Assembly: GCF_036507355.1 (NCBI RefSeq)
Contig: NZ_AP027877.1
Direction: 5' to 3' (one strand)
DNA: 64,000 nt
DNA from: Escherichia coli
GTDB taxonomy: Bacteria > Pseudomonadota > Gammaproteobacteria > Enterobacterales > Enterobacteriaceae
Shown here: in pieces, positions 5,370 to 62,425 of the stretch
Layout: each line of letters starts with the position of its first letter
How positions within the stretch are numbered: the stretch's first letter is position 1
The notes under the pieces: model-generated
What the model was told of the DNA's origin: nothing
The model's database searches: none
The model's input: the letters and a program-made list of their open reading frames with translations, nothing else
Translations under genes and position numbers: made by a program

Positions 5370-5400
5370 CTGATTAAACAGGGAAGTCAAACATTAAAAT

Positions 5401-5502
<102 letters not shown>

Positions 5503-7478: not shown

Positions 7479-7580
<102 letters not shown>

Positions 7581-7602
7581 TTATACGTTTGTCACCATCA
7601 CA

Positions 7603-8093: not shown

Positions 8094-9761
<1,668 letters not shown>

Positions 9762-15756: not shown

Positions 15757-17429
15757 TCCTGCTACTTTGCAGCACTTCCGTTTTTGCCGGATTATTCGAC
15801 GCGCCGGGACGTTCACAATTTGTCCCCGCGGATCAAGCCTTTACTTTTGATTTTCAGCAAAACCAACATGACCTTAATCTGACCTGGCAGATCAAAGACG
15901 GTTACTACCTCTACCGTAAACAGATCCGCATTACGCCGGAACACGCGAAAATTGCCGACGTGCAGCTTCCGCAAGGCGTCTGGCATGAAGATGAGTTTTA
16001 CGGCAAAAGCGAGATTTACCGCGATCGGCTGACGCTTCCCGTAACCATCAACCAGGCGAGTGCGGGAGCGACGTTAACTGTCACCTACCAGGGCTGTGCT
16101 GATGCCGGTTTCTGTTATCCGCCAGAAACCAAAACCGTTCCGTTAAGCGAAGTGGTCGCCAACAACGCAGCGTCACAGCCTGTGTCTGTTTCGCAGCAAG
16201 AGCAGCACACCGCGCAATTGCCCTTTTCCGCGCTCTGGGCGTTGTTGATCGGTATTGGTATCGCCTTTACGCCATGCGTGCTGCCAATGTACCCACTGAT
16301 TTCTGGCATCGTGCTGGGTGGTAAACAGCGGCTCTCCACTGCCAGAGCATTGTTGCTGACCTTTATTTATGTGCAGGGGATGGCACTGACTTACACGGCG
16401 CTGGGTCTGGTAGTTGCCGCCGCAGGGTTACAGTTCCAGGCGGCGCTACAGCACCCATACGTGCTCATTGGCCTCGCCATCGTCTTTACCTTGCTGGCGA
16501 TGTCAATGTTTGGCTTGTTTACTCTACAACTCCCCTCCTCGCTGCAAACGCGCCTCACGCTGATGAGCAATCGCCAACAGGGCGGCTCACCCGGCGGAGT
16601 GTTTATTATGGGGGCGATTGCCGGACTGATCTGTTCACCATGCACCACCGCACCGCTTAGCGCGATTCTGCTGTATATCGCCCAAAGCGGGAACATGTGG
16701 CTGGGCGGCGGCACGCTTTATCTCTATGCGTTGGGCATGGGCCTGCCGCTGATGCTAATTACCGTCTTTGGTAACCGCTTGCTGCCGAAAAGCGGCCCGT
16801 GGATGGAACAAGTCAAAACCGCGTTTGGTTTTGTGATCCTCGCACTGCCGGTCTTCCTGCTGGAGCGAGTGATTGGTGATATATGGGGATTACGCTTGTG
16901 GTCGGCGCTGGGTGTCGCATTCTTTGGCTGGGCCTTTATCACCAGCCTACAGACCAAACGCGGCTGGATGCGCGTGGTGCAAATAATCCTGCTGGCAGCG
17001 GCATTGGTTAGCGTGCGCCCACTTCAGGATTGGGCATTTGGTGCGACGCATACCGCGCAAACTCAGACGCATCTCAACTTTACACAAATCAAAACGGTAG
17101 ATGAGTTAAATCAGGCGCTCGTTGAAGCCAAAGGCAAACCGGTGATATTAGATCTTTATGCCGACTGGTGCGTCGCCTGTAAAGAGTTTGAGAAATACAC
17201 CTTCAGCGACCCGCAGGTGCAAAAAGCGTTAGCAGACACGGTCTTACTTCAGGCCAACGTCACGGCCAACGACGCACAAGATGTGGCGCTGTTAAAGCAT
17301 CTTAATGTCCTTGGCCTACCGACAATTCTCTTTTTTGACGGACAAGGCCAGGAGCATCCACAAGCACGCGTCACGGGCTTTATGGATGCTGAAACCTTCA
17401 GCGCACATTTGCGCGATCGCCAACCGTGA
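15732..17429 (+). CDS. dsbD: Thiol:disulfide interchange protein DsbD (565 aa)
   Basis: Within track ORF 15651..17429; start ATG 15732 ([20 protein letters not shown]...); C-terminal thioredoxin-like CVAC motif; overlaps the 3' end of cutA. Confidence 0.95.
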
Positions 17430-17465
17430 ACGACACTTGCAGTGGGAAAGACGGAGGAAAATAGC

Positions 17466-18041
17466 GTGCAACGTGAAGATGTACTGGGAGAAGCCCTGAA
17501 ATTATTAGAATTACAAGGGATTGCCAACACCACGCTGGAGATGGTTGCTGAACGTGTGGATTATCCACTGGACGAGCTGCGCCGCTTCTGGCCAGACAAA
17601 GAGGCAATACTCTACGATGCGCTGCGTTATCTTAGCCAACAGATAGATGTCTGGCGTCGTCAGCTGATGCTGGACGAAACGCAAACCGCCGAACAAAAGC
17701 TGCTGGCACGTTATCAGGCGTTATCGGAGTGCGTTAAAAACAACCGCTATCCGGGCTGTCTATTTATCGCTGCCTGTACGTTTTATCCCGATCCTGGCCA
17801 CCCTATTCATCAACTGGCCGATCAGCAAAAAAGCGCGGCCTACGATTTCACCCACGAACTGTTAACCACGCTGGAAGTTGACGATCCAGCGATGGTAGCA
17901 AAGCAGATGGAACTGGTGCTGGAAGGCTGTTTAAGCCGAATGCTGGTGAATCGTAGCCAGGCGGATGTCGACACCGCACATCGGCTGGCGGAAGATATCC
18001 TGCGCTTCGCCCGCTGCCGCCAGGGTGGTGCACTGACCTGA
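17466..18041 (+). CDS. yjdC: TetR-family putative regulator YjdC (about 191 aa; start uncertain, possibly GTG 17466 or the upstream in-frame start at 17442)
   Basis: Track ORF 17442..18041; N-terminal region resembles a TetR-type HTH domain; start choice is an inference. Confidence 0.8.
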
Positions 18042-18108
18042 CAGAAACACAGAAAAGAAGCGATTTGCCGCAATCTTAAGCAGTTGAATCGCTTTTACTG
18101 AAATTAGG

Positions 18109-18137
18109 TTGACGAGATGTGCAGATTACGGTTTAAT
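18109..18137 (+). promoter_or_regulatory. pheU tRNA promoter (-35 TTGACG, 17-bp spacer, -10 TTTAAT, GC-rich discriminator)
   Basis: TTGACG at 18109-18114 and TTTAAT at 18132-18137 followed by GCGCCCCG just before the tRNA 5' end. Confidence 0.55.
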
Positions 18138-18147
18138 GCGCCCCGTT

Positions 18148-18223
18148 GCCCGGATAGCTCAGTCGGTAGAGCAGGGGATTGAAAATCCCCGTGTCCTTGG
18201 TTCGATTCCGAGTCCGGGCACCA
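18148..18223 (+). tRNA. pheU: tRNA-Phe (anticodon GAA), 76 nt with encoded CCA
   Basis: GCCCGGATAGCTCAGTCGGTAGAGCAGGGGATTGAAAATCCCCGTGTCCTTGGTTCGATTCCGAGTCCGGGCACCA; acceptor stem GCCCGGA/TCCGGGC, anticodon loop ATTGAAAAT, T-loop GGTTCGATTCC. Confidence 0.97.
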
Positions 18224-18230
18224 AATTCAT

Positions 18231-18262
18231 ATAAACGGACCTCCACGGAGGTCCGTTTTTCG
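18231..18262 (+). terminator. Rho-independent terminator after pheU
   Basis: AAACGGACCTCCACGGAGGTCCGTTTTTCG hairpin plus T-run directly downstream of the tRNA. Confidence 0.75.
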
Positions 18263-18839
18263 TTTCTGGACGCCACAATTTAAGTGTTCTGCCTTCAAAT
18301 CAATTCTACCGAACTCAACCCGATTCTCCCCACATCACCAGCAATTTGCGGGCATATCCCAATTCGGGAAAATTTGTTTCTGAGCTATAGCACTGACTGA
18401 CGTGAAATGTCGTGCGGCCCCGTGATGCTGTTGAACGTCAAATGACGTCATCAGGAGCGTAACGCATCCATAAAGCACAACATCAGTCTGAACGCCGACT
18501 GATGAGATTTTCTGAATGAGAACAAAGAGAAATGTATCGGTCCACTTGCTCATGCAAAGACTAACAATCCATTAAAATAGTAAGCGCTCTGGACAATTTT
18601 CCATGGATTATTTTCTGAACATTTTTCTTTGGCAAAGATGATGAATTTTGATGATAAGGAATATTACTTCTGGTTCTCAGTAAAATCCTTTCGTAATACC
18701 ATGTAATCAAGAAGTTTATGGCTGGTAAAAATAACGTCTTGCATTCACCAATAATATGTAAATAAACCCATCTATAGATGGTAAAAATAGGTTGTGGCAA
18801 TTATCATTGCATCATTCCCTTTTCGAATGAGTTTCTATT

Positions 18840-20378
18840 ATGCAACAACCTGTAGTTCGCGTTGGCGAATGGCTTGTTACTCCGTCCATAAACCAAATTA
18901 GCCGCAATGGGCGTCAACTTACCCTTGAGCCGAGATTAATCGATCTTCTGGTTTTCTTTGCTCAACACAGTGGCGAAGTACTTAGCAGGGATGAACTTAT
19001 CGATAATGTCTGGAAGAGAAGTATTGTCACCAATCACGTTGTGACGCAGAGTATCTCAGAACTACGTAAGTCATTAAAAGATAATGATGAAGATAGTCCT
19101 GTCTATATCGCTACTGTACCAAAGCGCGGCTATAAATTAATGGTGCCGGTTATCTGGCACAGCGAAGAAGAGGGAGAGGAAATAATGCTATCTTCGCCTC
19201 CCCCTATACCAGAGGCGGTTCCTGCCACAGATTCTCCCTCCCACAGTCTTAACATTCAAAACACCGCAACGCCACCTGAACAATCCCCAGTTAAAAGCAA
19301 ACGATTCACTACCTTTTGGGTATGGTTTTTTTTCCTGTTGTCCTTAGGTATCTGTGTAGCACTGGTAGCGTTTTCAAGTCTTGATACACGTCTTCCGATG
19401 AGCAAATCGCGTATTTTGCTCAATCCACGCGATATTGACATTAATATGGTAAATAAAAGTTGTAACAGCTGGAGTTCCCCGTATCAGCTCTCTTACGCGA
19501 TAGGCGTGGGTGATTTGGTGGCGACATCACTTAACACCTTCTCCACCTTTATGGTGCATGACAAAATCAACTACAACATTGATGAACCGAGCAGTTCCGG
19601 TAAAACATTATCTATTGCGTTTGTTAATCAGCGCCAATACCGTGCTCAACAATGCTTTATGTCGATAAAATTGGTAGACAATGCAGATGGTTCAACCATG
19701 CTGGATAAACGTTATGTCATCACTAACGGTAATCAGCTGGCGATTCAAAATGATTTACTGGAGAGTTTATCAAAAGCGTTAAACCAACCGTGGCCACAAC
19801 GAATGCAGGAGACGCTCCAGCAAATTTTGCCTCATCGTGGTGCGTTATTAACTAATTTTTATCAGGCACATGATTATTTACTGCATGGCGATGATAAATC
19901 ATTGAACCGTGCCAGTGAATTATTAGGTGAGATTGTTCAATCATCTCCAGAATTTACCTACGCGAGAGCAGAAAAAGCATTAGTTGATATCGTGCGCCAT
20001 TCTCAACATCCTTTAGATGAAAAACAATTAGCAGCACTGAACACAGAAATAGATAACATTGTTACACTACCGGAATTGAATAACTTGTCCATTATATATC
20101 AAATAAAAGCGGTCAGTGCTCTGGTAAAAGGTAAAACAGATGAGTCTTACCAGGCGATAAATACTGGCATTGATCTTGAAATGTCCTGGCTAAATTATGT
20201 ATTGCTTGGCAAGGTTTATGAAATGAAGGGGATGAACCGGGAAGCGGCTGATGCATATCTCACCGCCTTTAATTTACGCCCAGGGGCAAACACCCTTTAC
20301 TGGATTGAAAATGGTATATTCCAGACTTCTGTTCCTTATGTTGTACCTTATCTCGACAAATTTCTCGCTTCAGAATAA
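18840..20378 (+). CDS. cadC: ToxR-like membrane-integrated transcriptional activator CadC (512 aa)
   Basis: Track ORF 18840..20378; N-terminal winged-helix DNA-binding domain, single TM segment (FWVWFFFLLSLGICVALVAF), periplasmic sensor domain. Confidence 0.97.
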   Translation: MQQPVVRVGEWLVTPSINQISRNGRQLTLEPRLIDLLVFFAQHSGEVLSRDELIDNVWKRSIVTNHVVTQSISELRKSLKDNDEDSPVYIATVPKRGYKLMVPVIWHSEEEGEEIMLSSPPPIPEAVPATDSPSHSLNIQNTATPPEQSPVKSKRFTTFWVWFFFLLSLGICVALVAFSSLDTRLPMSKSRILLNPRDIDINMVNKSCNSWSSPYQLSYAIGVGDLVATSLNTFSTFMVHDKINYNIDEPSSSGKTLSIAFVNQRQYRAQQCFMSIKLVDNADGSTMLDKRYVITNGNQLAIQNDLLESLSKALNQPWPQRMQETLQQILPHRGALLTNFYQAHDYLLHGDDKSLNRASELLGEIVQSSPEFTYARAEKALVDIVRHSQHPLDEKQLAALNTEIDNIVTLPELNNLSIIYQIKAVSALVKGKTDESYQAINTGIDLEMSWLNYVLLGKVYEMKGMNREAADAYLTAFNLRPGANTLYWIENGIFQTSVPYVVPYLDKFLASE

Positions 20379-20743
20379 GTAACCCCCGGGTTGATTCATG
20401 CTCGGGAATATTTGTTGTTGAGTTTTTGTATGTTCCTGTTGGTGTAATATGTTGCGGCAATTTATTTGCCGCATAATTTTTATTACATAAATTTAACCAG
20501 AAGACGTCACGCAATCTATTGTAAACATTGAATGTTTATCTTTTCATGATATCAACTTGCGATCCTGATGTGTTAATAAAAAACCTCAAGTTCTCACTTA
20601 CAGAAACTTTTGTGTTATTTCACCTAATCTTTAGGATTAATCCTTTTTTCGTGAGTAATCTTATCGCCAGTTTGGTCTGGTCAGGAAATAGTTATACATC
20701 ATGACCCGGACTCCAAATTCAAAAATGAAATTAGGAGAAGAGC
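20379..20743 (+). promoter_or_regulatory. cadBA promoter region (Pcad) with expected CadC-binding sites
   Basis: AT-rich 365-bp intergenic region between cadC and cadB; individual operator boundaries not resolved by eye. Confidence 0.45.
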
Positions 20744-22078
20744 ATGAGTTCTGCCAAGAAGATCGGGCTATTTGCCTGTACCGGTGTTGTTGCCGGTAAT
20801 ATGATGGGGAGCGGTATTGCATTATTACCTGCGAACCTAGCAAGTATCGGTGGTATTGCTATCTGGGGTTGGATTATCTCTATTATTGGTGCAATGTCGC
20901 TGGCGTATGTATATGCCCGACTGGCAACAAAAAACCCGCAACAAGGTGGCCCAATTGCTTATGCCGGAGAAATTTCTCCTGCATTTGGTTTTCAGACAGG
21001 TGTTCTTTATTACCATGCTAACTGGATTGGTAACCTGGCGATTGGTATTACCGCTGTATCTTATCTTTCCACCTTCTTCCCAGTATTAAATGATCCTGTT
21101 CCGGCGGGTATCGCCTGTATTGCTATCGTCTGGGTATTTACCTTTGTAAATATGCTCGGCGGTACCTGGGTAAGCCGTTTAACCACTATTGGTCTGGTGC
21201 TGGTTCTTATTCCTGTGGTGATGACTGCTATTGTTGGCTGGCATTGGTTTGATGCGGCAACTTATGCAGCTAACTGGAATACTGCGGATACCACTGATGG
21301 TCATGCGATCATTAAAAGTATTCTGCTCTGCCTGTGGGCCTTCGTGGGTGTTGAATCCGCAGCTGTAAGTACTGGTATGGTTAAAAACCCGAAACGTACC
21401 GTTCCGCTGGCAACCATGCTGGGTACTGGTTTAGCAGGTATTGTTTACATCGCTGCGACTCAGGTGCTTTCCGGTATGTATCCGTCTTCTGTAATGGCGG
21501 CCTCCGGTGCTCCGTTTGCAATCAGTGCTTCAACTATCCTCGGTAACTGGGCTGCGCCGCTGGTTTCTGCATTCACCGCCTTTGCGTGCCTGACTTCTCT
21601 GGGCTCCTGGATGATGTTGGTAGGCCAGGCAGGTGTACGTGCCGCTAACGACGGTAACTTCCCGAAAGTTTATGGTGAAGTCGACAGCAACGGTATTCCG
21701 AAAAAAGGTCTGCTGCTGGCTGCAGTGAAAATGACTGCCCTGATGATCCTCATCACTCTGATGAACTCTGCCGGTGGTAAAGCATCTGACCTGTTCGGTG
21801 AACTGACCGGTATCGCAGTACTGCTGACTATGCTGCCGTACTTCTACTCTTGCGTTGACCTGATTCGTTTTGAAGGCGTTAACATCCGCAACTTTGTCAG
21901 CCTGATCTGCTCTGTACTGGGTTGCGTGTTCTGCTTCATCGCGCTGATGGGCGCAAGCTCCTTCGAGCTGGCAGGTACCTTCATCGTCAGCCTGATTATC
22001 CTGATGTTCTACGCTCGCAAAATGCACGAGCGCCAGAGCCACTCAATGGATAACCACACCGCGTCTAACGCACATTAA
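20744..22078 (+). CDS. cadB: Lysine:cadaverine antiporter CadB (444 aa)
   Basis: Track ORF 20744..22078; APC-family transporter, paralogous to adiC (43744..45081). Confidence 0.97.
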   Translation: MSSAKKIGLFACTGVVAGNMMGSGIALLPANLASIGGIAIWGWIISIIGAMSLAYVYARLATKNPQQGGPIAYAGEISPAFGFQTGVLYYHANWIGNLAIGITAVSYLSTFFPVLNDPVPAGIACIAIVWVFTFVNMLGGTWVSRLTTIGLVLVLIPVVMTAIVGWHWFDAATYAANWNTADTTDGHAIIKSILLCLWAFVGVESAAVSTGMVKNPKRTVPLATMLGTGLAGIVYIAATQVLSGMYPSSVMAASGAPFAISASTILGNWAAPLVSAFTAFACLTSLGSWMMLVGQAGVRAANDGNFPKVYGEVDSNGIPKKGLLLAAVKMTALMILITLMNSAGGKASDLFGELTGIAVLLTMLPYFYSCVDLIRFEGVNIRNFVSLICSVLGCVFCFIALMGASSFELAGTFIVSLIILMFYARKMHERQSHSMDNHTASNAH

Positions 22079-22157
22079 TTAAAAGTATTTTCCGAGGCTC
22101 CTCCTTTCATTTTGTCCCATGTGTTGGGAGGGGCCTTTTTTACCTGGAGATATGACT

Positions 22158-24305
22158 ATGAACGTTATTGCAATATTGAATCACATGGGGGTTTATTTTA
22201 AAGAAGAACCCATCCGTGAACTTCATCGCGCGCTTGAACGTCTGAACTTCCAGATTGTTTACCCGAACGACCGTGACGACTTATTAAAACTGATCGAAAA
22301 CAATGCGCGTCTGTGCGGCGTTATTTTTGACTGGGATAAATATAATCTCGAGCTGTGCGAAGAAATTAGCAAAATGAACGAGAACCTGCCGTTGTACGCG
22401 TTCGCTAATACGTATTCCACTCTCGATGTAAGCCTGAATGACCTGCGTTTACAGATTAGCTTCTTTGAATATGCGCTGGGTGCTGCTGAAGATATTGCTA
22501 ACAAGATCAAGCAGACCACTGACGAATATATCAACACTATTCTGCCTCCGCTGACTAAAGCACTGTTTAAATATGTTCGTGAAGGTAAATATACTTTCTG
22601 TACTCCTGGTCACATGGGCGGTACTGCATTCCAGAAAAGCCCGGTAGGTAGCCTGTTCTATGATTTCTTTGGTCCGAATACCATGAAATCTGATATTTCC
22701 ATTTCAGTATCTGAACTGGGTTCTCTGCTGGATCACAGTGGTCCACACAAAGAAGCAGAACAGTATATCGCTCGCGTCTTTAACGCAGACCGCAGCTACA
22801 TGGTGACCAACGGTACTTCCACTGCGAACAAAATTGTTGGTATGTACTCTGCTCCGGCAGGCAGCACCATTCTGATTGACCGTAACTGCCACAAATCGCT
22901 GACCCACCTGATGATGATGAGCGATGTTACGCCAATCTATTTCCGCCCGACCCGTAACGCTTACGGTATTCTTGGTGGTATTCCACAGAGTGAATTCCAG
23001 CACGCTACCATTGCTAAGCGCGTGAAAGAAACACCAAACGCAACCTGGCCGGTACATGCTGTAATTACTAACTCTACCTATGATGGTCTGCTGTACAACA
23101 CCGACTTCATCAAGAAAACACTGGATGTGAAATCCATCCACTTTGACTCCGCGTGGGTGCCTTACACCAACTTCTCACCGATTTACGAAGGTAAATGCGG
23201 TATGAGCGGTGGCCGTGTAGAAGGGAAAGTGATTTACGAAACCCAGTCCACTCACAAACTGCTGGCGGCGTTCTCTCAGGCTTCCATGATCCACGTTAAA
23301 GGTGACGTAAACGAAGAAACCTTTAACGAAGCCTACATGATGCACACCACCACTTCTCCGCACTACGGTATCGTGGCGTCCACTGAAACCGCTGCAGCGA
23401 TGATGAAAGGTAATGCTGGTAAGCGTCTGATCAACGGTTCCATTGAACGTGCGATCAAATTCCGTAAAGAGATCAAACGTTTGAGAACGGAATCTGATGG
23501 CTGGTTCTTTGATGTATGGCAGCCGGATCATATCGATACGACTGAATGCTGGCCGCTGCGTTCTGACAGCACCTGGCACGGCTTCAAAAACATCGATAAC
23601 GAGCACATGTATCTTGACCCGATCAAAGTCACCCTGCTGACTCCGGGGATGGAAAAAGACGGCACCATGAGCGACTTTGGTATTCCGGCCAGCATCGTGG
23701 CGAAATACCTCGACGAACATGGCATCGTTGTTGAGAAAACCGGTCCGTATAACCTGCTGTTCCTGTTCAGCATCGGTATCGATAAGACCAAAGCACTGAG
23801 CCTGCTGCGTGCTCTGACTGACTTCAAACGTGCGTTCGACCTGAACCTGCGTGTGAAAAACATGCTGCCGTCTCTGTATCGTGAAGATCCTGAATTCTAT
23901 GAAAACATGCGTATTCAGGAACTGGCTCAGAATATCCACAAACTGATTGTTCACCACAATCTGCCGGATCTGATGTATCGCGCATTTGAAGTGCTGCCGA
24001 CGATGGTAATGACTCCGTATGCTGCGTTCCAGAAAGAGCTGCACGGTATGACCGAAGAAGTTTACCTCGACGAAATGGTAGGTCGTATTAACGCCAATAT
24101 GATCCTTCCATATCCGCCGGGAGTTCCTCTGGTAATGCCGGGTGAAATGATCACCGAAGAAAGCCGTCCGGTTCTGGAGTTCCTGCAGATGCTGTGTGAA
24201 ATCGGCGCTCACTATCCGGGCTTTGAAACCGATATTCACGGTGCATACCGTCAGGCTGATGGCCGCTATACCGTTAAGGTATTGAAAGAAGAAAGCAAAA
24301 AATAA
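22158..24305 (+). CDS. cadA: Inducible lysine decarboxylase CadA (715 aa)
   Basis: Within track ORF 22119..24305; start ATG 22158 (MNVIAILNHMGVYFKEEPIRELHRALERLNFQIVYPNDRDDLLKLIENN...); PLP-fold decarboxylase. Confidence 0.97.
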   Translation: MNVIAILNHMGVYFKEEPIRELHRALERLNFQIVYPNDRDDLLKLIENNARLCGVIFDWDKYNLELCEEISKMNENLPLYAFANTYSTLDVSLNDLRLQISFFEYALGAAEDIANKIKQTTDEYINTILPPLTKALFKYVREGKYTFCTPGHMGGTAFQKSPVGSLFYDFFGPNTMKSDISISVSELGSLLDHSGPHKEAEQYIARVFNADRSYMVTNGTSTANKIVGMYSAPAGSTILIDRNCHKSLTHLMMMSDVTPIYFRPTRNAYGILGGIPQSEFQHATIAKRVKETPNATWPVHAVITNSTYDGLLYNTDFIKKTLDVKSIHFDSAWVPYTNFSPIYEGKCGMSGGRVEGKVIYETQSTHKLLAAFSQASMIHVKGDVNEETFNEAYMMHTTTSPHYGIVASTETAAAMMKGNAGKRLINGSIERAIKFRKEIKRLRTESDGWFFDVWQPDHIDTTECWPLRSDSTWHGFKNIDNEHMYLDPIKVTLLTPGMEKDGTMSDFGIPASIVAKYLDEHGIVVEKTGPYNLLFLFSIGIDKTKALSLLRALTDFKRAFDLNLRVKNMLPSLYREDPEFYENMRIQELAQNIHKLIVHHNLPDLMYRAFEVLPTMVMTPYAAFQKELHGMTEEVYLDEMVGRINANMILPYPPGVPLVMPGEMITEESRPVLEFLQMLCEIGAHYPGFETDIHGAYRQADGRYTVKVLKEESKK

Positions 24306-24316
24306 TTAGCTCGTAC

Positions 24317-24347
24317 AAGGGAAGTGGCTTGCCACTTCCCTTTTTTG
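24317..24347 (+). terminator. Rho-independent terminator after cadA
   Basis: GGGAAGTGGCTTGCCACTTCCC hairpin followed by TTTTTTG. Confidence 0.7.
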
Positions 24348-24363
24348 CTCATAAGGAGAACAC

Positions 24364-25821
24364 ATGAAAACACCCTCACAGCCGCGCGCGATATACTATA
24401 TCGTGGCGATCCAAATCTGGGAGTACTTCAGTTTTTACGGCATGCGTGCCTTACTCATTCTCTATCTCACCCATCAGCTTGGTTTTGATGATAACCATGC
24501 CATCAGCCTGTTCAGCGCATATGCTTCTCTGGTTTACGTTACCCCTATTCTCGGCGGCTGGCTTGCCGACCGCCTGCTCGGCAACCGCACTGCAGTGATT
24601 GCCGGCGCGCTGTTAATGACCCTTGGCCATGTGGTGCTGGGCATTGATACAAATTCAACCTTTAGCCTGTATCTGGCGCTGGCAATCATTATTTGTGGCT
24701 ACGGTTTATTCAAATCAAACATCAGCTGTTTGCTTGGCGAGCTCTACGACGAGAACGATCATCGACGTGATGGCGGTTTTTCGCTGCTGTATGCTGCGGG
24801 CAATATCGGTTCTATCGCCGCCCCAATCGCCTGCGGCCTGGCTGCTCAGTGGTATGGATGGCATGTTGGCTTTGCCCTTGCGGGTGGCGGCATGTTTATC
24901 GGTTTGTTGATTTTCTTAAGCGGTCATCGTCATTTCCAGTCCACGCGTAGTATGGATAAAAAAGCGCTCACTAGCGTGAAATTTGCCTTACCAGTATGGA
25001 GCTGGTTAGTGGTGATGCTCTGTTTAGCCCCAGTATTTTTTACTCTGCTGCTGGAGAACGACTGGTCCGGATATTTGCTGGCGATCGTTTGCCTCATTGC
25101 CGCACAAATCATTGCCCGCATGATGATCAAATTCCCCGAACACCGCCGTGCTCTTTGGCAAATTGTATTGTTGATGTTTGTCGGGACGTTGTTCTGGGTA
25201 CTGGCACAACAGGGCGGCAGTACCATCAGCTTGTTTATCGATCGCTTTGTGAATCGTCAGGCATTCAATATTGAAGTACCTACTGCACTATTCCAGTCGG
25301 TGAATGCAATTGCGGTGATGCTCGCTGGGGTTGTTCTGGCCTGGCTGGCGTCGCCAGAAAGCCGCGGCAACTCAACATTGCGCGTCTGGCTGAAGTTTGC
25401 CTTTGGCTTACTGCTGATGGCTTGTGGCTTTATGTTGCTGGCATTTGATGCCCGACATGCAGCGGCTGACGGTCAAGCGTCAATGGGCGTGATGATATCC
25501 GGGTTGGCGCTAATGGGCTTTGCCGAACTCTTTATTGACCCGGTGGCGATTGCGCAAATCACGCGTCTGAAAATGTCTGGCGTATTAACCGGGATTTATA
25601 TGCTGGCAACAGGCGCGGTCGCCAACTGGCTGGCAGGCGTAGTGGCACAGCAGACGACAGAGTCGCAAATTAGCGGTATGGCAATTGCAGCTTACCAGCG
25701 ATTCTTTTCTCAGATGGGAGAGTGGACGTTGGCTTGTGTCGCGATCATCGTGGTATTGGCCTTTGCTGCCCGTTTTCTGTTTAGCACGCCGACGAATATG
25801 ATACAGGAGAGCAACGATTAA
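24364..25821 (+). CDS. dtpC: Dipeptide/tripeptide permease DtpC (YjdL, 485 aa)
   Basis: Track ORF 24364..25821; POT/PTR2-family signature with many TM segments. Confidence 0.95.
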
Positions 25822-26057
25822 CTGTCGTAAAAACAATTATTTATGAATAAATTAACTTTCAGTTTATAACACTAGCAAATCGATATTAATAAGTCATTTA
25901 AACCATTTTGATGGTTATTTATTAGTGATATCAACTTGAGGTAAGCGTTAGTTTCGATAAGATAAACTGAGTTACTAATAGTCGAGGCAGATAATACAGT
26001 GTACCGATCTGTCTCTTTATCTACGCTAAATTGAAAGCTGGATTTAGAGGAACCAAA

Positions 26058-27575
26058 ATGTCTGAACAAGAAACACGGGGAGCCAATGAGGCTATTGATT
26101 TTAACGATGAACTGAGAAATCGCCGCGAAAAACTGGCGGCACTACGTCAGCAAGGTGTGGCGTTTCCCAATGATTTTCGCCGCGACCATACCTCTGACCA
26201 GTTGCACGAAGAGTTTGATGCGAAGGATAACCAGGAACTGGAATCCTTAAACATTGAAGTCTCGGTTGCTGGCCGAATGATGACCCGTCGTATCATGGGG
26301 AAAGCCTCCTTTGTAACGTTGCAGGATGTCGGTGGCCGTATTCAACTGTACGTCGCACGAGATAGCCTGCCAGAAGGTGTTTATAACGATCAGTTTAAAA
26401 AATGGGATCTGGGTGACATTATCGGTGCCCGCGGTACGCTGTTTAAGACGCAAACGGGTGAGCTTTCCATTCACTGTACTGAGCTGCGTCTGCTGACTAA
26501 AGCACTACGTCCTTTACCAGATAAATTCCATGGTCTGCAGGATCAGGAAGTTCGTTATCGTCAACGTTATCTGGACCTCATCGCTAACGATAAATCCCGT
26601 CAAACGTTTGTTGTCCGTTCAAAAATTCTGGCCGCTATCCGTCAGTTCATGGTCGCGCGCGGCTTTATGGAAGTAGAAACCCCGATGATGCAGGTAATTC
26701 CAGGTGGGGCATCTGCTCGCCCGTTTATTACCCATCATAATGCTCTGGATTTAGATATGTATCTGCGTATCGCGCCGGAGCTGTATCTGAAACGTCTGGT
26801 TGTAGGCGGTTTTGAACGGGTATTCGAAATCAACCGTAACTTCCGTAATGAAGGTATTTCTGTTCGCCATAATCCTGAGTTCACAATGATGGAACTCTAC
26901 ATGGCGTATGCGGATTACCACGATTTGATTGAACTGACAGAGTCACTGTTCCGCACCCTGGCACAAGAGGTTCTGGGTACCACTAAAGTCACTTATGGCG
27001 AGCATGTGTTTGATTTCGGCAAACCGTTTGAAAAACTCACCATGCGCGAAGCAATCAAAAAATATCGTCCAGAAACCGATATGGCCGACCTGGATAATTT
27101 TGATGCTGCTAAAGCATTAGCTGAATCTATCGGTATTACGGTAGAGAAAAGCTGGGGGCTGGGACGTATTGTCACGGAGATCTTTGATGAAGTGGCAGAA
27201 GCACATCTGATTCAGCCAACCTTTATTACGGAATATCCGGCAGAAGTGTCACCGCTGGCACGCCGTAATGATGTTAACCCGGAAATCACCGACCGTTTTG
27301 AATTCTTCATCGGTGGTCGTGAAATCGGTAATGGTTTTAGCGAATTAAACGACGCAGAAGATCAGGCTGAACGTTTCCAGGAACAGGTTAATGCTAAAGC
27401 TGCAGGTGACGACGAAGCCATGTTCTATGACGAAGATTACGTGACTGCGCTGGAATATGGTCTGCCGCCAACCGCTGGTCTGGGTATTGGTATCGACCGA
27501 ATGATTATGCTGTTCACAAACAGTCATACTATTCGCGACGTTATTCTCTTCCCGGCGATGCGCCCACAGAAATAA
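26058..27575 (+). CDS. lysU: Lysyl-tRNA synthetase, heat-inducible isoform LysU (505 aa)
   Basis: Within track ORF 26031..27575; start ATG 26058 ([33 protein letters not shown]...); class II aaRS motifs; placement next to the cad operon distinguishes it from lysS. Confidence 0.95.
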
Positions 27576-27693
27576 ATTTCACTTTAATGAACGAAGCAGT
27601 CAGGCGACTGCTTCGTTCGTCGTTCCGCAAATCCAGTTTTGAGGAGAGACGCTTCGTTTCACGATAACCAGCGGGTCCACTCAACTACAGCTC

Positions 27694-27867
27694 CTAAAAG
27701 AGAGAAAAAAGTAATGCCACAGGCAGACTCATTGGCCAGGTTATTCCGACCAGGAATGCACTAAGTAAACGAATATGTGTTTTCTCATGTGAGATAAACC
27801 AGATAATGACAAAGGATATGTTCACACCAATCACATAAAAAATTAATATTTTAGAGAATAGTGCCAT
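27694..27867 (-). CDS. ghoT: Type V toxin GhoT, small membrane-lytic peptide (57 aa)
   Basis: Reverse-complement translation: MALFSKILIFYVIGVNISFVIIWFISHEKTHIRLLSAFLVGITWPMSLPVALLFSLF*; located by hand (below track cutoff); 27 bp downstream of ghoS on the same strand. Confidence 0.9.
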   Translation of the reverse strand: MALFSKILIFYVIGVNISFVIIWFISHEKTHIRLLSAFLVGITWPMSLPVALLFSLF

Positions 27868-27894
27868 TTTTTATGTTCTTCTTATCCTTCCTGG

Positions 27895-28191
27895 CTACTT
27901 GTAAAACTGACGGAAATAGTCATCAACTGTCATAATGTTGAGGTCAAAGTCAATATCCGGTAAGTCTAAGCATTTAAGCCTGATTAAATCTTCGATTTCA
28001 CTTGCGGCTAACGATGTCGTTATTGCGAAGGAGTTTTCATTCAATTGTCGTGGTATCCCATATTCATCAGCCACGATAGAGGAGAAATTCATATCATACA
28101 TCAATGATCTTAACCTTAAGAACACTGAGGAATAAGATGATGGATAATCAAAAGAAACAACATAAGTATTGAACTTGTTTTTACCTTCCAT
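27895..28191 (-). CDS. ghoS: Type V antitoxin GhoS, sequence-specific endoribonuclease (98 aa)
   Basis: Track ORF 27895..28191(-); MEGKNKFNTYVVSFDYPSSYSSVFLRLRSLMYDMNFSSIVADEYGIPRQLNENSFAITTSLAASEIEDLIRLKCLDLPDIDFDLNIMTVDDYFRQFYK. Confidence 0.9.
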   Translation of the reverse strand: MEGKNKFNTYVVSFDYPSSYSSVFLRLRSLMYDMNFSSIVADEYGIPRQLNENSFAITTSLAASEIEDLIRLKCLDLPDIDFDLNIMTVDDYFRQFYK

Positions 28192-28417
28192 AATATGACT
28201 CCTATCAATATTGAACGCTCTGGGGACGCAAAACTTATTAACCCCGATTGATGATTCTCATATAGGAGATATTCTTTTTTTTGCTCAGTAAAGGGGATGA
28301 CTTGGGACAAAAAAACGCGCTCTCTGCCCATTCTTTGTGCATCCCCCTACCCTTCAGATGCTCTCCTGCATCACACCGTGGAGAGCATGAAAAATATCGT
28401 GAATCTGTACTCTCCCA

Positions 28418-28690
28418 TCAACTGCGAATATCATCATACTCCCGCGTTTTATCAAATTCGTGTTTCGCAAATGGACATAATGGGATAATTTTTCGTTTTT
28501 CCCGACGCATTTTTTCCACGACTTTCGCAACCAGCTGTTTACCAATCCCTTGCCCTTTCAGGCTTTCATCGACATCGGTATGTTCGATAATCGCTAAATT
28601 CTCTCCGGTCGGCACAAAGACAATTTCAGCGATTTGCTTGCCCTGTTCATCATTAATGTAAAATTTATTGTAGCCTTCGCGTATTTCCAT
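28418..28690 (-). CDS. yjdJ: GNAT-family N-acetyltransferase YjdJ (90 aa)
   Basis: Track ORF 28418..28690(-); compact GNAT motif (QGIGKQLV). Confidence 0.85.
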
Positions 28691-28701
28691 TTTACCCTCG
28701 C

Positions 28702-28932
28702 TTATTTATGACGGTATTTCAGCGCGCCGCTCGGGCACGTATCAATCACTTTAACCACAGTGGTAACGTCGACTTCATCCGGCATGATCCACGGCTTTCG
28801 TTTGAGATTAAATAACTTGCCGTTGCCACGTACGCAATTGCCAGAATGCTGACATATCGCAGTATTGAAATAGACATCGATCTTTTCGCCGGTATAACAG
28901 CGATAACCCCCGTCCAGTAGCGCCTGATCCAT
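28702..28932 (-). CDS. yjdI: Uncharacterised Cys-rich protein YjdI (76 aa)
   Basis: Track ORF 28702..28932(-); recognised as YjdI; conserved cysteines suggest a metal-binding fold. Confidence 0.85.
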
Positions 28933-29112
28933 GACCTTCCCTCTCTCATCAGTATGATTATCGCTATAAGCATAGCCCTGGAATCCTCATACAGCACTGG
29001 CAGTTTCCGTTGCCAGAGTCTCTTCCCCTATATAGCCAATCATTCTTACTCCCTTTGAATTACCCGCCTCATCAGAGATAATGCTTAAGAAATTTGTCAC
29101 ACAAGGAAGCTG

Positions 29113-35217: not shown

Positions 35218-35847
35218 ATGACCCGCACACTCAAGCCGTTAATTCTTAACACTGGCGCACTGGCGCTAACGTTAATCCTCATTTATACCGGCATTTCGGC
35301 CCATGACAAACTCACCTGGCTGATGGAAGTGACACCGGTGATTATTGTCATGCCGCTACTCCTTGCCACCGCGAAACGTTATCCGTTAACGCCGCTGCTC
35401 TATACGCTCATTTTCTTTCACGCCATCATCCTGATGGTCGGCGGGCAATACACCTACGCGAAAGTCCCCGTTGGTTTTGAGGTGCAGGAATGGCTGGGGT
35501 TGAGCCGTAATCCGTATGACAAGCTGGGGCATTTTTTCCAGGGGCTGGTGCCTGCACTGGTGGCACGTGAGATCCTTGTGCGCGGGATGTACGTTCGCGG
35601 ACGTAAAATGGTGGCGTTTCTGGTCTGTTGCGTGGCGCTGGCGATAAGCGCGATGTATGAATTAATCGTGTGGTGGGCGGCGCTGGCAATGGGCCAGGGA
35701 GCGGATGATTTTCTCGGCACCCAGGGCGACCAGTGGGACACGCAATCCGATATGTTCTGCGCGCTGCTTGGCGCATTAACGACGGTGATATTCCTCGCTC
35801 GCTTTCATTGCCGCCAGCTACGGCGCTTTGGCTTGATAACCGGATAA
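35218..35847 (+). CDS. yjdF: Inner-membrane protein YjdF (209 aa)
   Basis: Track ORF 35218..35847; multi-TM hydrophobic protein recognised as YjdF. Confidence 0.85.
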   Translation: MTRTLKPLILNTGALALTLILIYTGISAHDKLTWLMEVTPVIIVMPLLLATAKRYPLTPLLYTLIFFHAIILMVGGQYTYAKVPVGFEVQEWLGLSRNPYDKLGHFFQGLVPALVAREILVRGMYVRGRKMVAFLVCCVALAISAMYELIVWWAALAMGQGADDFLGTQGDQWDTQSDMFCALLGALTTVIFLARFHCRQLRRFGLITG

Positions 35848-35862
35848 CAACGTGCACTTTGT

Positions 35863-35965
35863 TGATGCCGGATGCGGCGTGAATTCCTTATCCGGTCTAC
35901 AAAATTTGCAAATCCAAAGCATTACATTAAGACGTGGCCTGATAAACATATCGCATCAGGCCATT
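35863..35965. repeat. REP/BIME element
   Basis: GATGCCGGATGCGGCGTGAATTCCTTATCCGGTCTAC ... GGCCTGATAAACATATCGCATCAGGCC; boundaries approximate. Confidence 0.65.
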
Positions 35966-54392: not shown

Positions 54393-54545
<153 letters not shown>

Positions 54546-57015: not shown

Positions 57016-57105
57016 CGTAGGTCGGATAAGACGCCCCGGCGTCGCATCCGACAATGTGCAGGCGTTGATGCCGGATGCGGTGCAAGCACCTTATCCGGCC
57101 TACAG
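57016..57105. repeat. REP/BIME element
   Basis: GTAGGTCGGATAAGACGCCCCGGCGTCGCATCCGACA ... GATGCCGGATGCGGTGCAAGCACCTTATCCGGCCTAC; boundaries approximate. Confidence 0.65.
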
Positions 57106-62338: not shown

Positions 62339-62425
62339 GGTGCCGGATGCGGCGTAAACGCCTTATCCTGCCTACAAATGCGCTCCCCGTAGGTCGGATA
62401 AGACGCGTCAGCGTCGCATCCGACA
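62339..62425. repeat. REP/BIME element
   Basis: GCCGGATGCGGCGTAAACGCCTTATCCTGCCTAC ... GTAGGTCGGATAAGACGCGTCAGCGTCGCATCCGACA; boundaries approximate. Confidence 0.65.

Follow-up and report, generated by a model that had tools for sequence, protein, structure and literature searches.

An empty but scarred pheU attachment site in Escherichia coli probably retains the fossil left end of an ancient P4-type tRNA-Phe island

The yjdC-pheU-cadC region of Escherichia coli is a standard insertion site for pathogenicity islands (PAIs) and for the LEE (PMC7686366; bioRxiv 10.1101/549998). The closest described systems are the P4-type tRNA-Phe islands, among them LEE-pheU of O26:H11, the papGII PAIs at pheU/pheV and GI-pheV, which share one tRNA target and a 22-nt att core that their P4-type (intP4/CP4-like) tyrosine integrases use for recombination. 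Decayed integrase fragments beside tRNA 3′ ends in K-12-like backbones mark former island occupancy. The attR of intP4 islands is imperfect, with a length of 19–23 bp, and many of these islands have no detectable attR (PMC11537424).

The window analyzed here, a stretch of 64,000 nucleotides from E. coli (contig NZ_AP027877.1), contains this site in the order dicD-pheU-spacer-cadC, and all features given below lie on the + strand unless stated otherwise. The pheU gene (18148..18223) encodes a 76-nt tRNA-Phe(GAA) including its CCA (ARAGORN; Rfam RF00005, 68.3 bits) and is 100% identical to K-12 pheU, to nearly all of the 80 outgroup loci and to tRNAs at which islands reside. On its right the insertion site is flanked by cadC (18840..20378), an annotated ORF of 512 aa that matches the commonest CadC cluster of E. 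coli with 100% identity. With the cadC ATG at 18840, the spacer between the two genes (18224..18839) measures 616 bp, the length given in an earlier note on this DNA and the length found in K-12 (pheU 4362551-626, cadC start 4361934). The note had also proposed comparing this length with other E. coli, and as the matched span was 1959 bases in 20 sampled island-free genomes (1958 in one), the spacer length is invariant. Taken together, we consider it highly probable (roughly 0.9) that the site is a currently empty but scarred attB, in which the fossil left end of an ancient P4-type tRNA-Phe island persists and no island is resident.

The absence of a resident island is evident from several searches. 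The spacer contains no intact integrase ORF (its longest ORF is 79 aa), and the two short antisense ORFs that the earlier note had regarded as unsupported (72 and 79 aa) have no Pfam match. An Rfam search of 17400..19400 at a permissive E-value returned the tRNA alone and two chance-level matches to eukaryotic or viral families, while a promoter scan of the spacer returned no + strand site at the threshold of the tool and two − strand sites, a chance-level result. No strain-specific cargo lies between the tRNA and the conserved flank, where the 616-bp spacer is as in K-12. The att core, the last 22 nt of the tRNA (18202..18223; TCGATTCCGAGTCCGGGCACCA), recurs at the distal end of P4-type pheU islands in related genomes and is present here as a single copy. 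Searches of the whole 64 kb with a 25-mer and an 18-mer of the tRNA 3′ end, allowing up to 3 mismatches, matched only the tRNA itself, and no distal attR of 19–23 bp was detected; a 13-mer allowing up to 2 mismatches added a single chance-level match at 35546, on the wrong strand. A similar search served as a positive control and recovered exact 17-nt repeats of the tRNA 3′ end 146–325 nt downstream of pheU in five outgroup genomes. The claims of the earlier note that an integrase gene and a direct repeat of the tRNA 3′ end are missing are thereby borne out.

Among 5426 complete E. coli genomes, dicD, pheU, the spacer and cadC are contiguous in 3677 (~68%), a count in which insertions of up to about 1.5 kb may go unnoticed, since nearby BLAST pieces were joined. 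The remaining ~32% are interrupted, mostly at the 22-nt att core, with the break mostly at query position 760, which corresponds to window position 18201. As the earlier note had anticipated, strain-specific islands sit at this site in relatives: in O26:H11, a LEE island of ~58.7 kb lies between the tRNA and a 22-nt attR, from which one G of the core is absent, and beyond this attR follow the same fossil and cadC. In strain RM13752, a longer tRNA segment of 49 nt (18175..18223) persists at the distal junction of an element from another family, which has a ParA gene at its end. In the window the tRNA is intact, the 22-nt core unaltered and the flanks contiguous. Because the att core is intact, new islands should still be able to integrate, and the pheU site is probably integration-competent as judged from its sequence; a new island would leave the fossil and cadC beyond its attR.

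The description of the spacer as holding only a terminator and AT-rich sequence upstream of cadC did not hold. Island-type sequence, a left end complete with its hairpin, begins directly after the tRNA, and 360 of the 616 bp (18224..18583) are fossil, the other 256 bp being made up of a 190-bp segment and the 66 nt next to cadC. The first part of the fossil (18224..18386) corresponds to the tRNA-to-int interval of an island left end and carries deletions of 12 nt and 22 nt relative to the O26 island. Window positions 18101..18377 align to the O26 tRNA and int-upstream region with 89% identity over 289 columns (blastn, E 1e-111). The second part (18387..18583) is a degraded integrase.

What remains of the integrase amounts to 197 nt of a 1266-nt gene. 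Its codons 1–9 (18387..18412) read ATA GCA CTG ACT GAC GTG AAA TGT CG, the ATG start codon having been mutated to ATA, and they are colinear with the homology upstream of them. The corresponding peptide, IALTDVKCRAA in the window, matches MALTDAKIRAA of the O26 integrase by tblastn, with which the DNA alignment agrees. These codons adjoin the junction of an internal deletion of ~1,040 nt (integrase nt 27–1066), best placed at 18412|18413 and ambiguous within 18411..18420. The C-terminal piece (18413..18583) comprises codons ~356–421 and ends in a TAG TAA stop (18578..18583). It contains a 1-nt insertion at ~18446 and two deletions: 16 nt are missing between 18464 and 18465, which eliminates GVRAAY and with it the catalytic Tyr, and 14 nt are missing between 18504 and 18505, which eliminates LQWWA. 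The lengths sum to the intact gene exactly (1266 − 197 = 1069 = 1040 + 16 + 14 − 1).

The intact homologue, the LEE-pheU integrase of O26:H11, has 421 aa and the Pfam domains Arm-DNA-bind_3, Phage_int_M and Phage_integrase. Its aa 1–11, 359–391 and 397–420 align colinearly to the window (tblastn, linked E 6e-10), and the 3′ end of its gene matches the relic DNA with 70% identity over 201 columns (blastn, E 3e-25); the surviving C-terminal pieces have 58% aa identity to it. Both the HxxR motif (residue 341) and the Tyr (378) of this homologue are absent from the relic. A frameshift-repaired relic peptide of 51 aa, short and without the catalytic core, had no Pfam match, so that its identification as integrase relies on pairwise homology together with annotation. 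The relic is a descendant of the P4-type tyrosine integrase family and not a functional member of it.

Much of the relic has a known counterpart. At the same position and on the same strand, K-12 MG1655 has the pseudogene yjdQ (b4654; K-12 4362191..4362353 = window 18421..18583), in which the 16-nt and 14-nt deletions and the main junction are identical to those of the window, and other RefSeq E. coli have at the same place a PGAP call of a tyrosine-type recombinase/integrase, frameshifted and missing its N-terminus. The yjdQ annotation spans only the C-terminal 160–163 nt, whereas the present analysis includes codons 1–9, which lie outside the yjdQ and PGAP annotation, as well as the island upstream region and its terminator. 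With 18387..18412 and 18224..18386 added, the fossil measures ~360 bp and not ~160 bp. A literature search on yjdQ by name found no paper. An eroded island end made up of the pseudogene yjdQ and of parts that had not been annotated is an ordinary and largely known feature.

A terminator after the tRNA, which the earlier note had correctly reported, is predicted at 18233..18260 and consists of a hairpin (18233..18258) with an 11-bp stem, 6 GC pairs and a 4-nt loop, followed by a T-run. Its fold energy is −18.4 kcal/mol (z = −3.6; none of 200 shuffles was as stable), and it probably terminates pheU transcription. The same hairpin lies downstream of the tRNA in the O26 island's own copy. Among the 72 readable outgroup loci, this island-type hairpin occurs in 10, of which 9 have O26-type integrase homology directly after it, while a different hairpin, e.g. 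AACCCAGCCTATGGCTGGGTTTTT, occurs in 53, with (distant) integrase homology in 1 of the 53. The window terminator is of the island-family type, unlike the hairpin after pheU in most other Enterobacteriaceae, and this hairpin travels with the integrase lineage.

These comparisons bear directly on the possibility that the site was never occupied, with a spacer composed of the pheU terminator and cadC upstream DNA. The lack of an intact integrase, an att repeat or cargo would agree with such a pristine backbone, as would the K-12-like spacer length and the majority state in E. coli, but it is very improbable given that homology to the left end of a modern pheU island extends over 360 of the 616 bp and takes in both N- and C-terminal codons of the integrase, that RefSeq annotates an integrase pseudogene in the spacer, and that the terminator is of the island-lineage type. 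Spurious homology is untenable with colinear E values of 1e-111, 3e-25 and 6e-10. The earlier note's "backbone state" can therefore be kept in the sense that no island is resident and that the arrangement is the majority one (3677/5426), but not in the sense of a site never occupied, as an integrase remnant is present. Such a remnant and a duplicated tRNA 3′ segment were the two findings that the note had named as speaking against its reading; the former was found and the latter was not.

The fossil is old and almost universal. At ≥80% coverage it is present in 5250 of the 5426 complete E. coli genomes, and the main deletion junction is common to K-12, O55:H7, E. whittamii and Escherichia sp. 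E1V33. A divergent genome labeled 'E. coli' (L009) has the fossil with the main junction but retains 10 nt more, and lineages with the fossil carry nested, lineage-specific indels that include 16-, 10-, 22- and 28-nt changes. Since three other Escherichia lineages share this main junction, the fossil predates E. coli. The available E. albertii contig stops 680 nt past the tRNA, and the integrase remnant on it, with a longer N-terminal part, differs in structure and may or may not stem from the same ancient event. That the scar was left recently by the loss of a modern island from this strain would be in line with the 89% identity of its left part to a modern island, but the prevalence of the fossil makes such an origin hardly credible. 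The same deletion junctions recur in K-12, O55:H7, O26, VR50, RM13752 and other Escherichia species, and in island-bearing genomes the relic sits past the attR of the modern island.

The pattern of divergence helps to assess whether the relic has acquired a new role. Identity to K-12 is 96.3% for 18224..18386 and 96.45% for 18387..18583, compared with 99–100% for the functional neighbors (the tRNA and the 66 nt next to cadC are 100% identical, dicD and cadC ~99%). The fossil drifts neutrally. Co-option, whether to encode a small RNA or peptide or to regulate cadC, might explain why ~97% of E. coli and other Escherichia lineages retain the relic, and would suit its position upstream of cadC and a second hairpin inside it (18481..18504). 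Such a role is nevertheless improbable, as the relic diverges 3–4 times faster than neighboring functional DNA, its indels vary among lineages, no Rfam family rises above chance, the antisense ORFs have no Pfam match and, in E. fergusonii, which lacks the relic, the cadC region is normal from −66 on.

The remainder of the spacer has a different character. The region 18584..18839, with a GC of 0.32, is the sole part that fits the description of AT-rich cadC upstream sequence. Its first 190 bp (18584..18773; GC 0.32), which separate the integrase stop from the left edge of the cad block, have 97.9% identity to K-12 and no match in the O26 island or in outgroups beyond the E. coli-like Escherichia lineages. 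A distant blastn search of all complete E. coli found this segment as a single copy (5298 places in 5272 genomes) and not in modern islands, and E. fergusonii lacks it upstream of cadC. The last 66 nt (18774..18839) are conserved and probably constitute the core promoter and 5′ leader of cadC; E. fergusonii homology begins at 18774, and motifs of the region are recognizable in Raoultella. A literature search for the cadC transcription start found no usable published statement.

Position 18774 is also the left edge of the cadC-cadB-cadA-dtpC-lysU block (18774..27575; 8.8 kb), a conserved unit found at other chromosomal sites in other genera. E. fergusonii matches 18774..27575 with 90.4% identity, and the E. 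albertii match stops at 27588. In E. fergusonii the block is situated between pgaABCD with a GGDEF gene and the serX tRNA-Ser, beside scars of tRNA-3′-end repeats, and in Raoultella and Pseudescherichia its flanks differ again. Further, yjdF lies within 85–500 nt after pheU in Enterobacter and Kosakonia. The GC of the block is 0.464 (cadC 0.42) vs 0.509 for the window and 0.50–0.54 for the flanks. Some E. coli are missing precisely this stretch of ~10 kb beside pheU (PMC3408504), as is 'E. coli' E69 (L011) in this analysis. This genome was considered as a possible pre-insertion state and rejected, as its pheU precedes an Eco29kI-type restriction-modification pair, yjdJ/yjdI and an autotransporter, which is a replaced state.

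It is conceivable, if rather unlikely, that the block, possibly together with ghoTS/yjdJI, is what survives of the cargo of the island to which the fossil integrase belonged, in which case the site would be occupied by an ancient fixed island. The block begins 190 bp past the integrase stop in the same orientation; it has sharp edges (18774 and ~27575–27588), other sites and flanks elsewhere and a GC below its surroundings; yjdF closely follows pheU in Enterobacter and Kosakonia; and the E. coli without exactly this ~10 kb, along with the many intP4 islands that have no detectable attR, are also compatible with a cargo origin. Against it, neither an att repeat nor the terminator of other genera was found at the right edge of the block or in the 46 kb downstream, and a tblastn search found no integrase remnants beside the block in E. 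fergusonii, E. albertii, Raoultella and Pseudescherichia. The 190 bp between fossil and block were not found in modern islands. Adjacency to pheU is in itself expected, because any island at pheU lands between the tRNA and the downstream DNA, and the pheU-to-proP region is mosaic among genera, so that the block could have moved by other means. A search of 18100..28400 for repeats bracketing the block returned only short chance-level families; a 34-nt repeat pair at 18717/18773 (71%) touches its left edge and is not convincing. On this rather unlikely reading, the lysine-dependent acid-resistance locus would be domesticated tRNA-Phe island cargo fixed before E. coli speciation, and the block would have been placed independently beside serX in E. 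fergusonii.

The favored reading of an empty but scarred attB implies that an ancient island integrated at pheU in an ancestor that E. coli shares with its closest relatives in Escherichia. This island would have supplied the post-tRNA sequence, from its terminator hairpin through the integrase upstream region to the integrase itself. That gene would then have been destroyed in place through the loss of its start codon and the 1,040-nt internal deletion, followed by later, lineage-specific small indels, an order of events that we infer. The rest of the island and the distal att repeat may have been lost or have changed past recognition. A search of the whole window with the pheU hairpin of other genera and the outgroup post-tRNA sequence returned only REP-like repeats and yjdF coding homology, and since, with neither an att repeat nor this hairpin in the 64 kb, no distal end of the ancient island could be located, we infer the loss of the cargo. 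The locus shares with P4-type tRNA-Phe islands the tRNA-to-int sequence (89%) and the integrase lineage (70% in DNA), but, unlike them, it has no functional integrase, attR or strain-specific cargo, and its fossil is fixed species-wide. As a decayed integrase fragment beside a tRNA 3′ end, this fossil resembles others in K-12-like backbones.

The use of a K-12-like pheU-cadC arrangement as the empty reference for island detection should take into account that the tRNA is directly followed by ~360 bp of island-derived sequence, and that the annotated pseudogene is less than half of the fossil. This concerns tRIP-style PCR, assembly-based PAI typing and the scoring of yjdC-cadC distance. Additionally, ~150 bp with 89% identity to the left end of a modern island create a long imperfect repeat around a new island, which may confuse boundary calls. 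The site is an integration hotspot that records past occupancy, and the order of its nested deletions can be read on the Escherichia tree. Should the speculative cargo reading be true, the Cad system, a core E. coli trait, would be traceable to integrase-mediated acquisition.

The window holds a single tRNA gene, tRNA-Phe(GAA) at 18148..18223 on the + strand (ARAGORN; Rfam concurs), and the first long ORF after it is cadC (18840..20378), which encodes the CadC sequence found most often in E. coli. The gap between pheU and cadC (18224..18839) is 616 bp, the same length as in K-12 MG1655, where the gene order is dsbD-dicD(yjdC)-pheU-cadC-cadB-cadA. An earlier note had called this site unoccupied, and the search for an att repeat that it proposed was run on both strands across all 64 kb, with queries of 25, 18, and 13 nt from the tRNA 3' terminus and with 3, 3, and 2 mismatches allowed. 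The queries hit the tRNA and, besides it, one chance-level 13-mer site on the wrong strand inside yjdF; there is no second copy of the tRNA 3' end in the 64 kb. As a positive control, five outgroup genomes were found to repeat 17 nt of the tRNA 3' end exactly, 146–325 nt 3' of pheU. Lacking an att repeat, an intact integrase, and any extra DNA, the site is unoccupied in that sense; it is in the island-free majority state, and the earlier observation is largely correct. The five control copies (outgroup loci L023, L055, L074, L077, and L081, from Citrobacter, Kosakonia, Enterobacter, and Phytobacter) come shortly after each locus's own pheU terminator and suggest small island scars.

The dicD-pheU-spacer-cadC arrangement is unbroken in 3677 of 5426 E. 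coli genomes (68%), and the uniform matched span in 20 sampled genomes (1959 bases, except one at 1958) indicates that the spacer length is invariant among them. The remaining third are interrupted, most breaking at 18201. Consistent with the view that the site marks where islands sit in relatives, published work treats yjdC-pheU-cadC as a standard PAI/LEE insertion site (PMC7686366, bioRxiv 10.1101/549998, PMC3408504), and in the O26:H11 strain FWSEC0001 a LEE island of ~58.7 kb occupies pheU. At the distal junction of this O26 island stands a 22-nt repeat of 18202..18223 that lacks one G, and beyond it come the remnant described below and cadC; intP4 islands are reported to have 19–23-bp imperfect attR repeats, and many to be without any attR (PMC11537424). 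Elements of another family, marked by a ParA gene at the end, retain 49 nt (18175..18223), and in strain VR50 IS3-flanked DNA adjoins 18322. The divergent 'E. coli' E69 (CP089930.1, L011:6759-12573), which is 95.8% identical to the window over the DNA before pheU, lacks both the remnant and the cad block (cadC to lysU); after its pheU come genes for an Eco29kI-type restriction endonuclease and a C5 methylase, and beyond them yjdJ/yjdI homology and a gene for an autotransporter.

The site is unoccupied, but it is not the clean backbone that had been proposed, as an integrase remnant is present, which the earlier note itself had named as a refuting result, and an island occupied pheU in an ancestor. 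RefSeq annotates 'integrase' under the megablast match even in island-free genomes among the 5,426 complete E. coli, the K-12 pseudogene yjdQ (b4654, 4362191..4362353) corresponds to 18421..18583, and PGAP labels this stretch 'integrase, frameshifted, missing N-terminus'. The intact FWSEC0001 integrase (421 aa, starting 198 nt after the tRNA, with Arm-DNA-bind_3, Phage_int_M, and Phage_integrase Pfam domains) gave colinear tblastn matches to the spacer (linked E-value 6e-10), with residues 1-11 at 18387..18419, 359-391 at 18421..18504, and 397-420 at 18506..18577, before the stop TAG TAA at 18578..18583. At the DNA level, identity to the O26 tRNA and tRNA-to-int interval reaches 89% over 18101..18377 (E 1e-111), and identity to the 3' end of the integrase gene is 70% over 18413..18583 (E 3e-25). 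Base-level alignment to O26 resolves the island left end (18224..18386, with 12- and 22-nt deletions), integrase codons 1-9 (18387..18412, ATG to ATA), a 1,040-nt internal deletion with its junction near 18412|18413 that includes the HxxR motif (residue 341), and codons ~356-421 (18413..18583). The last segment is further damaged by a 1-nt insertion and by two small deletions, one of 16 nt that takes out GVRAAY with the catalytic Tyr378 and one of 14 nt that takes out LQWWA. The length balance is exact (1266 - 197 = 1069 = 1040 + 16 + 14 - 1). Based on this anatomy the fossil (18224..18583) fills about 360 bp of the 616-bp spacer, over twice the annotated extent, and the spacer is not, as had been described, a terminator and cadC upstream sequence only.

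The terminator, too, belongs to the island. A strong hairpin and T-run (18233..18258; -18.4 kcal/mol, z = -3.6, equaled by 0 of 200 shuffles) lies 9 nt 3' of the tRNA. Among 80 dicD-pheU loci fetched from other species, 72 were readable after the tRNA, and 53 of these have a different GC hairpin and T-run directly 3' of the tRNA (exactly AACCCAGCCTATGGCTGGGTTTTTGC in 21), which was not found anywhere in the 64-kb window. The window-type hairpin (..ACGGACCTCCACGGAGGTCCGTTTTT) is limited to 10 of the 72, five from Escherichia and the others from Leclercia, Trabulsiella, Klebsiella spallanzanii, Raoultella, and Citrobacter amalonaticus; O26-type integrase homology follows it directly in nine, and it also occurs in the O26 island's own copy. 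On these comparisons the pheU-side terminator is island-derived, as would be expected of integration into a tRNA 3' end, where the island brings new downstream sequence.

The fossil (18260..18600 at ≥80% coverage) is present in 5250 of the 5426 complete E. coli genomes, with or without an island; it also precedes cadC in E. whittamii, in Escherichia sp. E1V33, and in a divergent genome that bears the E. coli label. In an alignment of these relatives, all four share the large internal deletion, at which the divergent genome retains 10 more nt; the 14-nt deletion is common to E. coli, E. whittamii, and E1V33, and E. coli and E1V33 alone share two more, the 16-nt one that removes Tyr and the 22-nt one upstream. 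The E. albertii copy is truncated differently (codons 1 to ~41), after which the contig ends. This distribution and nested decay indicate that the fossil is older than the E. coli species and was eroded stepwise. Identity to K-12 is 100% for the tRNA and for the 66 nt before cadC (18774..18839), ~99% for dicD and cadC, 97.9% for 18584..18773, and 96.3-96.5% for the fossil, values consistent with neutral drift of the fossil. This strain's relic has several private substitutions; its best identity among the 5,426 complete genomes is only 97.7% (18260-18600), and that of the 1959-bp locus is 99.1% despite the CadC allele being the commonest.

Beyond the fossil, the window's match to E. fergusonii (90.4%) is confined to 18774-27575 and its match to E. 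albertii stops at 27588, which delimits cadC-cadB-cadA-dtpC-lysU as an 8.8-kb unit with its left edge 66 nt before the cadC ATG. It is unlikely, though conceivable, that this block is surviving cargo of the ancient pheU island. It is conserved and sharp-edged and, in loci L088-L091, intact but differently placed: in E. fergusonii (between pgaABCD with a GGDEF gene and a tRNA-Ser(GGA) gene) and in Raoultella and Pseudescherichia (with other flanks). It follows pheU in E. coli-like Escherichia only; in Enterobacter and Kosakonia yjdF lies almost directly 3' of pheU, then proP. The intervening 18584..18773 (190 bp, GC 0.32) is single-copy in E. coli, with no match outside E. coli-like lineages. 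Against such an origin, neither a distal att repeat nor a terminator of the other-genera type occurs downstream in the window, no integrase remnant lies beside the block in the other genera examined, and an island entering at pheU would adjoin whatever already stood there.

Several features of the neighborhood can be noted separately. A 34-nt imperfect direct repeat (71%; 18717-18750, TATGGCTGGTAAAAATAACG..., and 18773-18806, TATAGATGGTAAAAATAGG...) has its second copy beginning exactly at the left edge of the cad block, which may be chance. In E. fergusonii (L088:16800-17300), two ~180-nt tandem units between lysU and tRNA-Ser(GGA), each of which opens on a partial tRNA-Ser 3' end (TGGCGGAGAGGGGGGGATTGA...), resemble att-type scars at the serX hotspot. 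Just past the cad block, 27576-29000 (ghoT/ghoS/yjdJ/yjdI) has low GC (0.415), and a different gene (PF03458 family) after lysU in E. albertii indicates that this stretch, too, varies among Escherichia. An additional gene separates dicD from pheU in many species, E. whittamii and Escherichia sp. E1V33 among them (in the former, L007:6644-8659, it encodes a 671-aa DUF1176 protein), placing the tRNA at ~8215-8960 instead of ~6683 of many outgroup loci; it is absent in E. coli, where the dicD-pheU distance is 106 nt. Six short repeated elements (5398-5501, 7479-7582, 35866-35965, 54397-54480, 57069-57105, and 62341-62378) cross-match Citrobacter/Enterobacter intergenic DNA and are presumably REP/BIME-type repeats.

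As yjdQ and the PGAP pseudogene already record the remnant, and pheU is a textbook case of a hotspot, the finding is an ordinary one. What the analysis adds is modest: how far the fossil extends in full, how old it is and in what steps it eroded, and the sharply bounded, relocatable cad block beside it.
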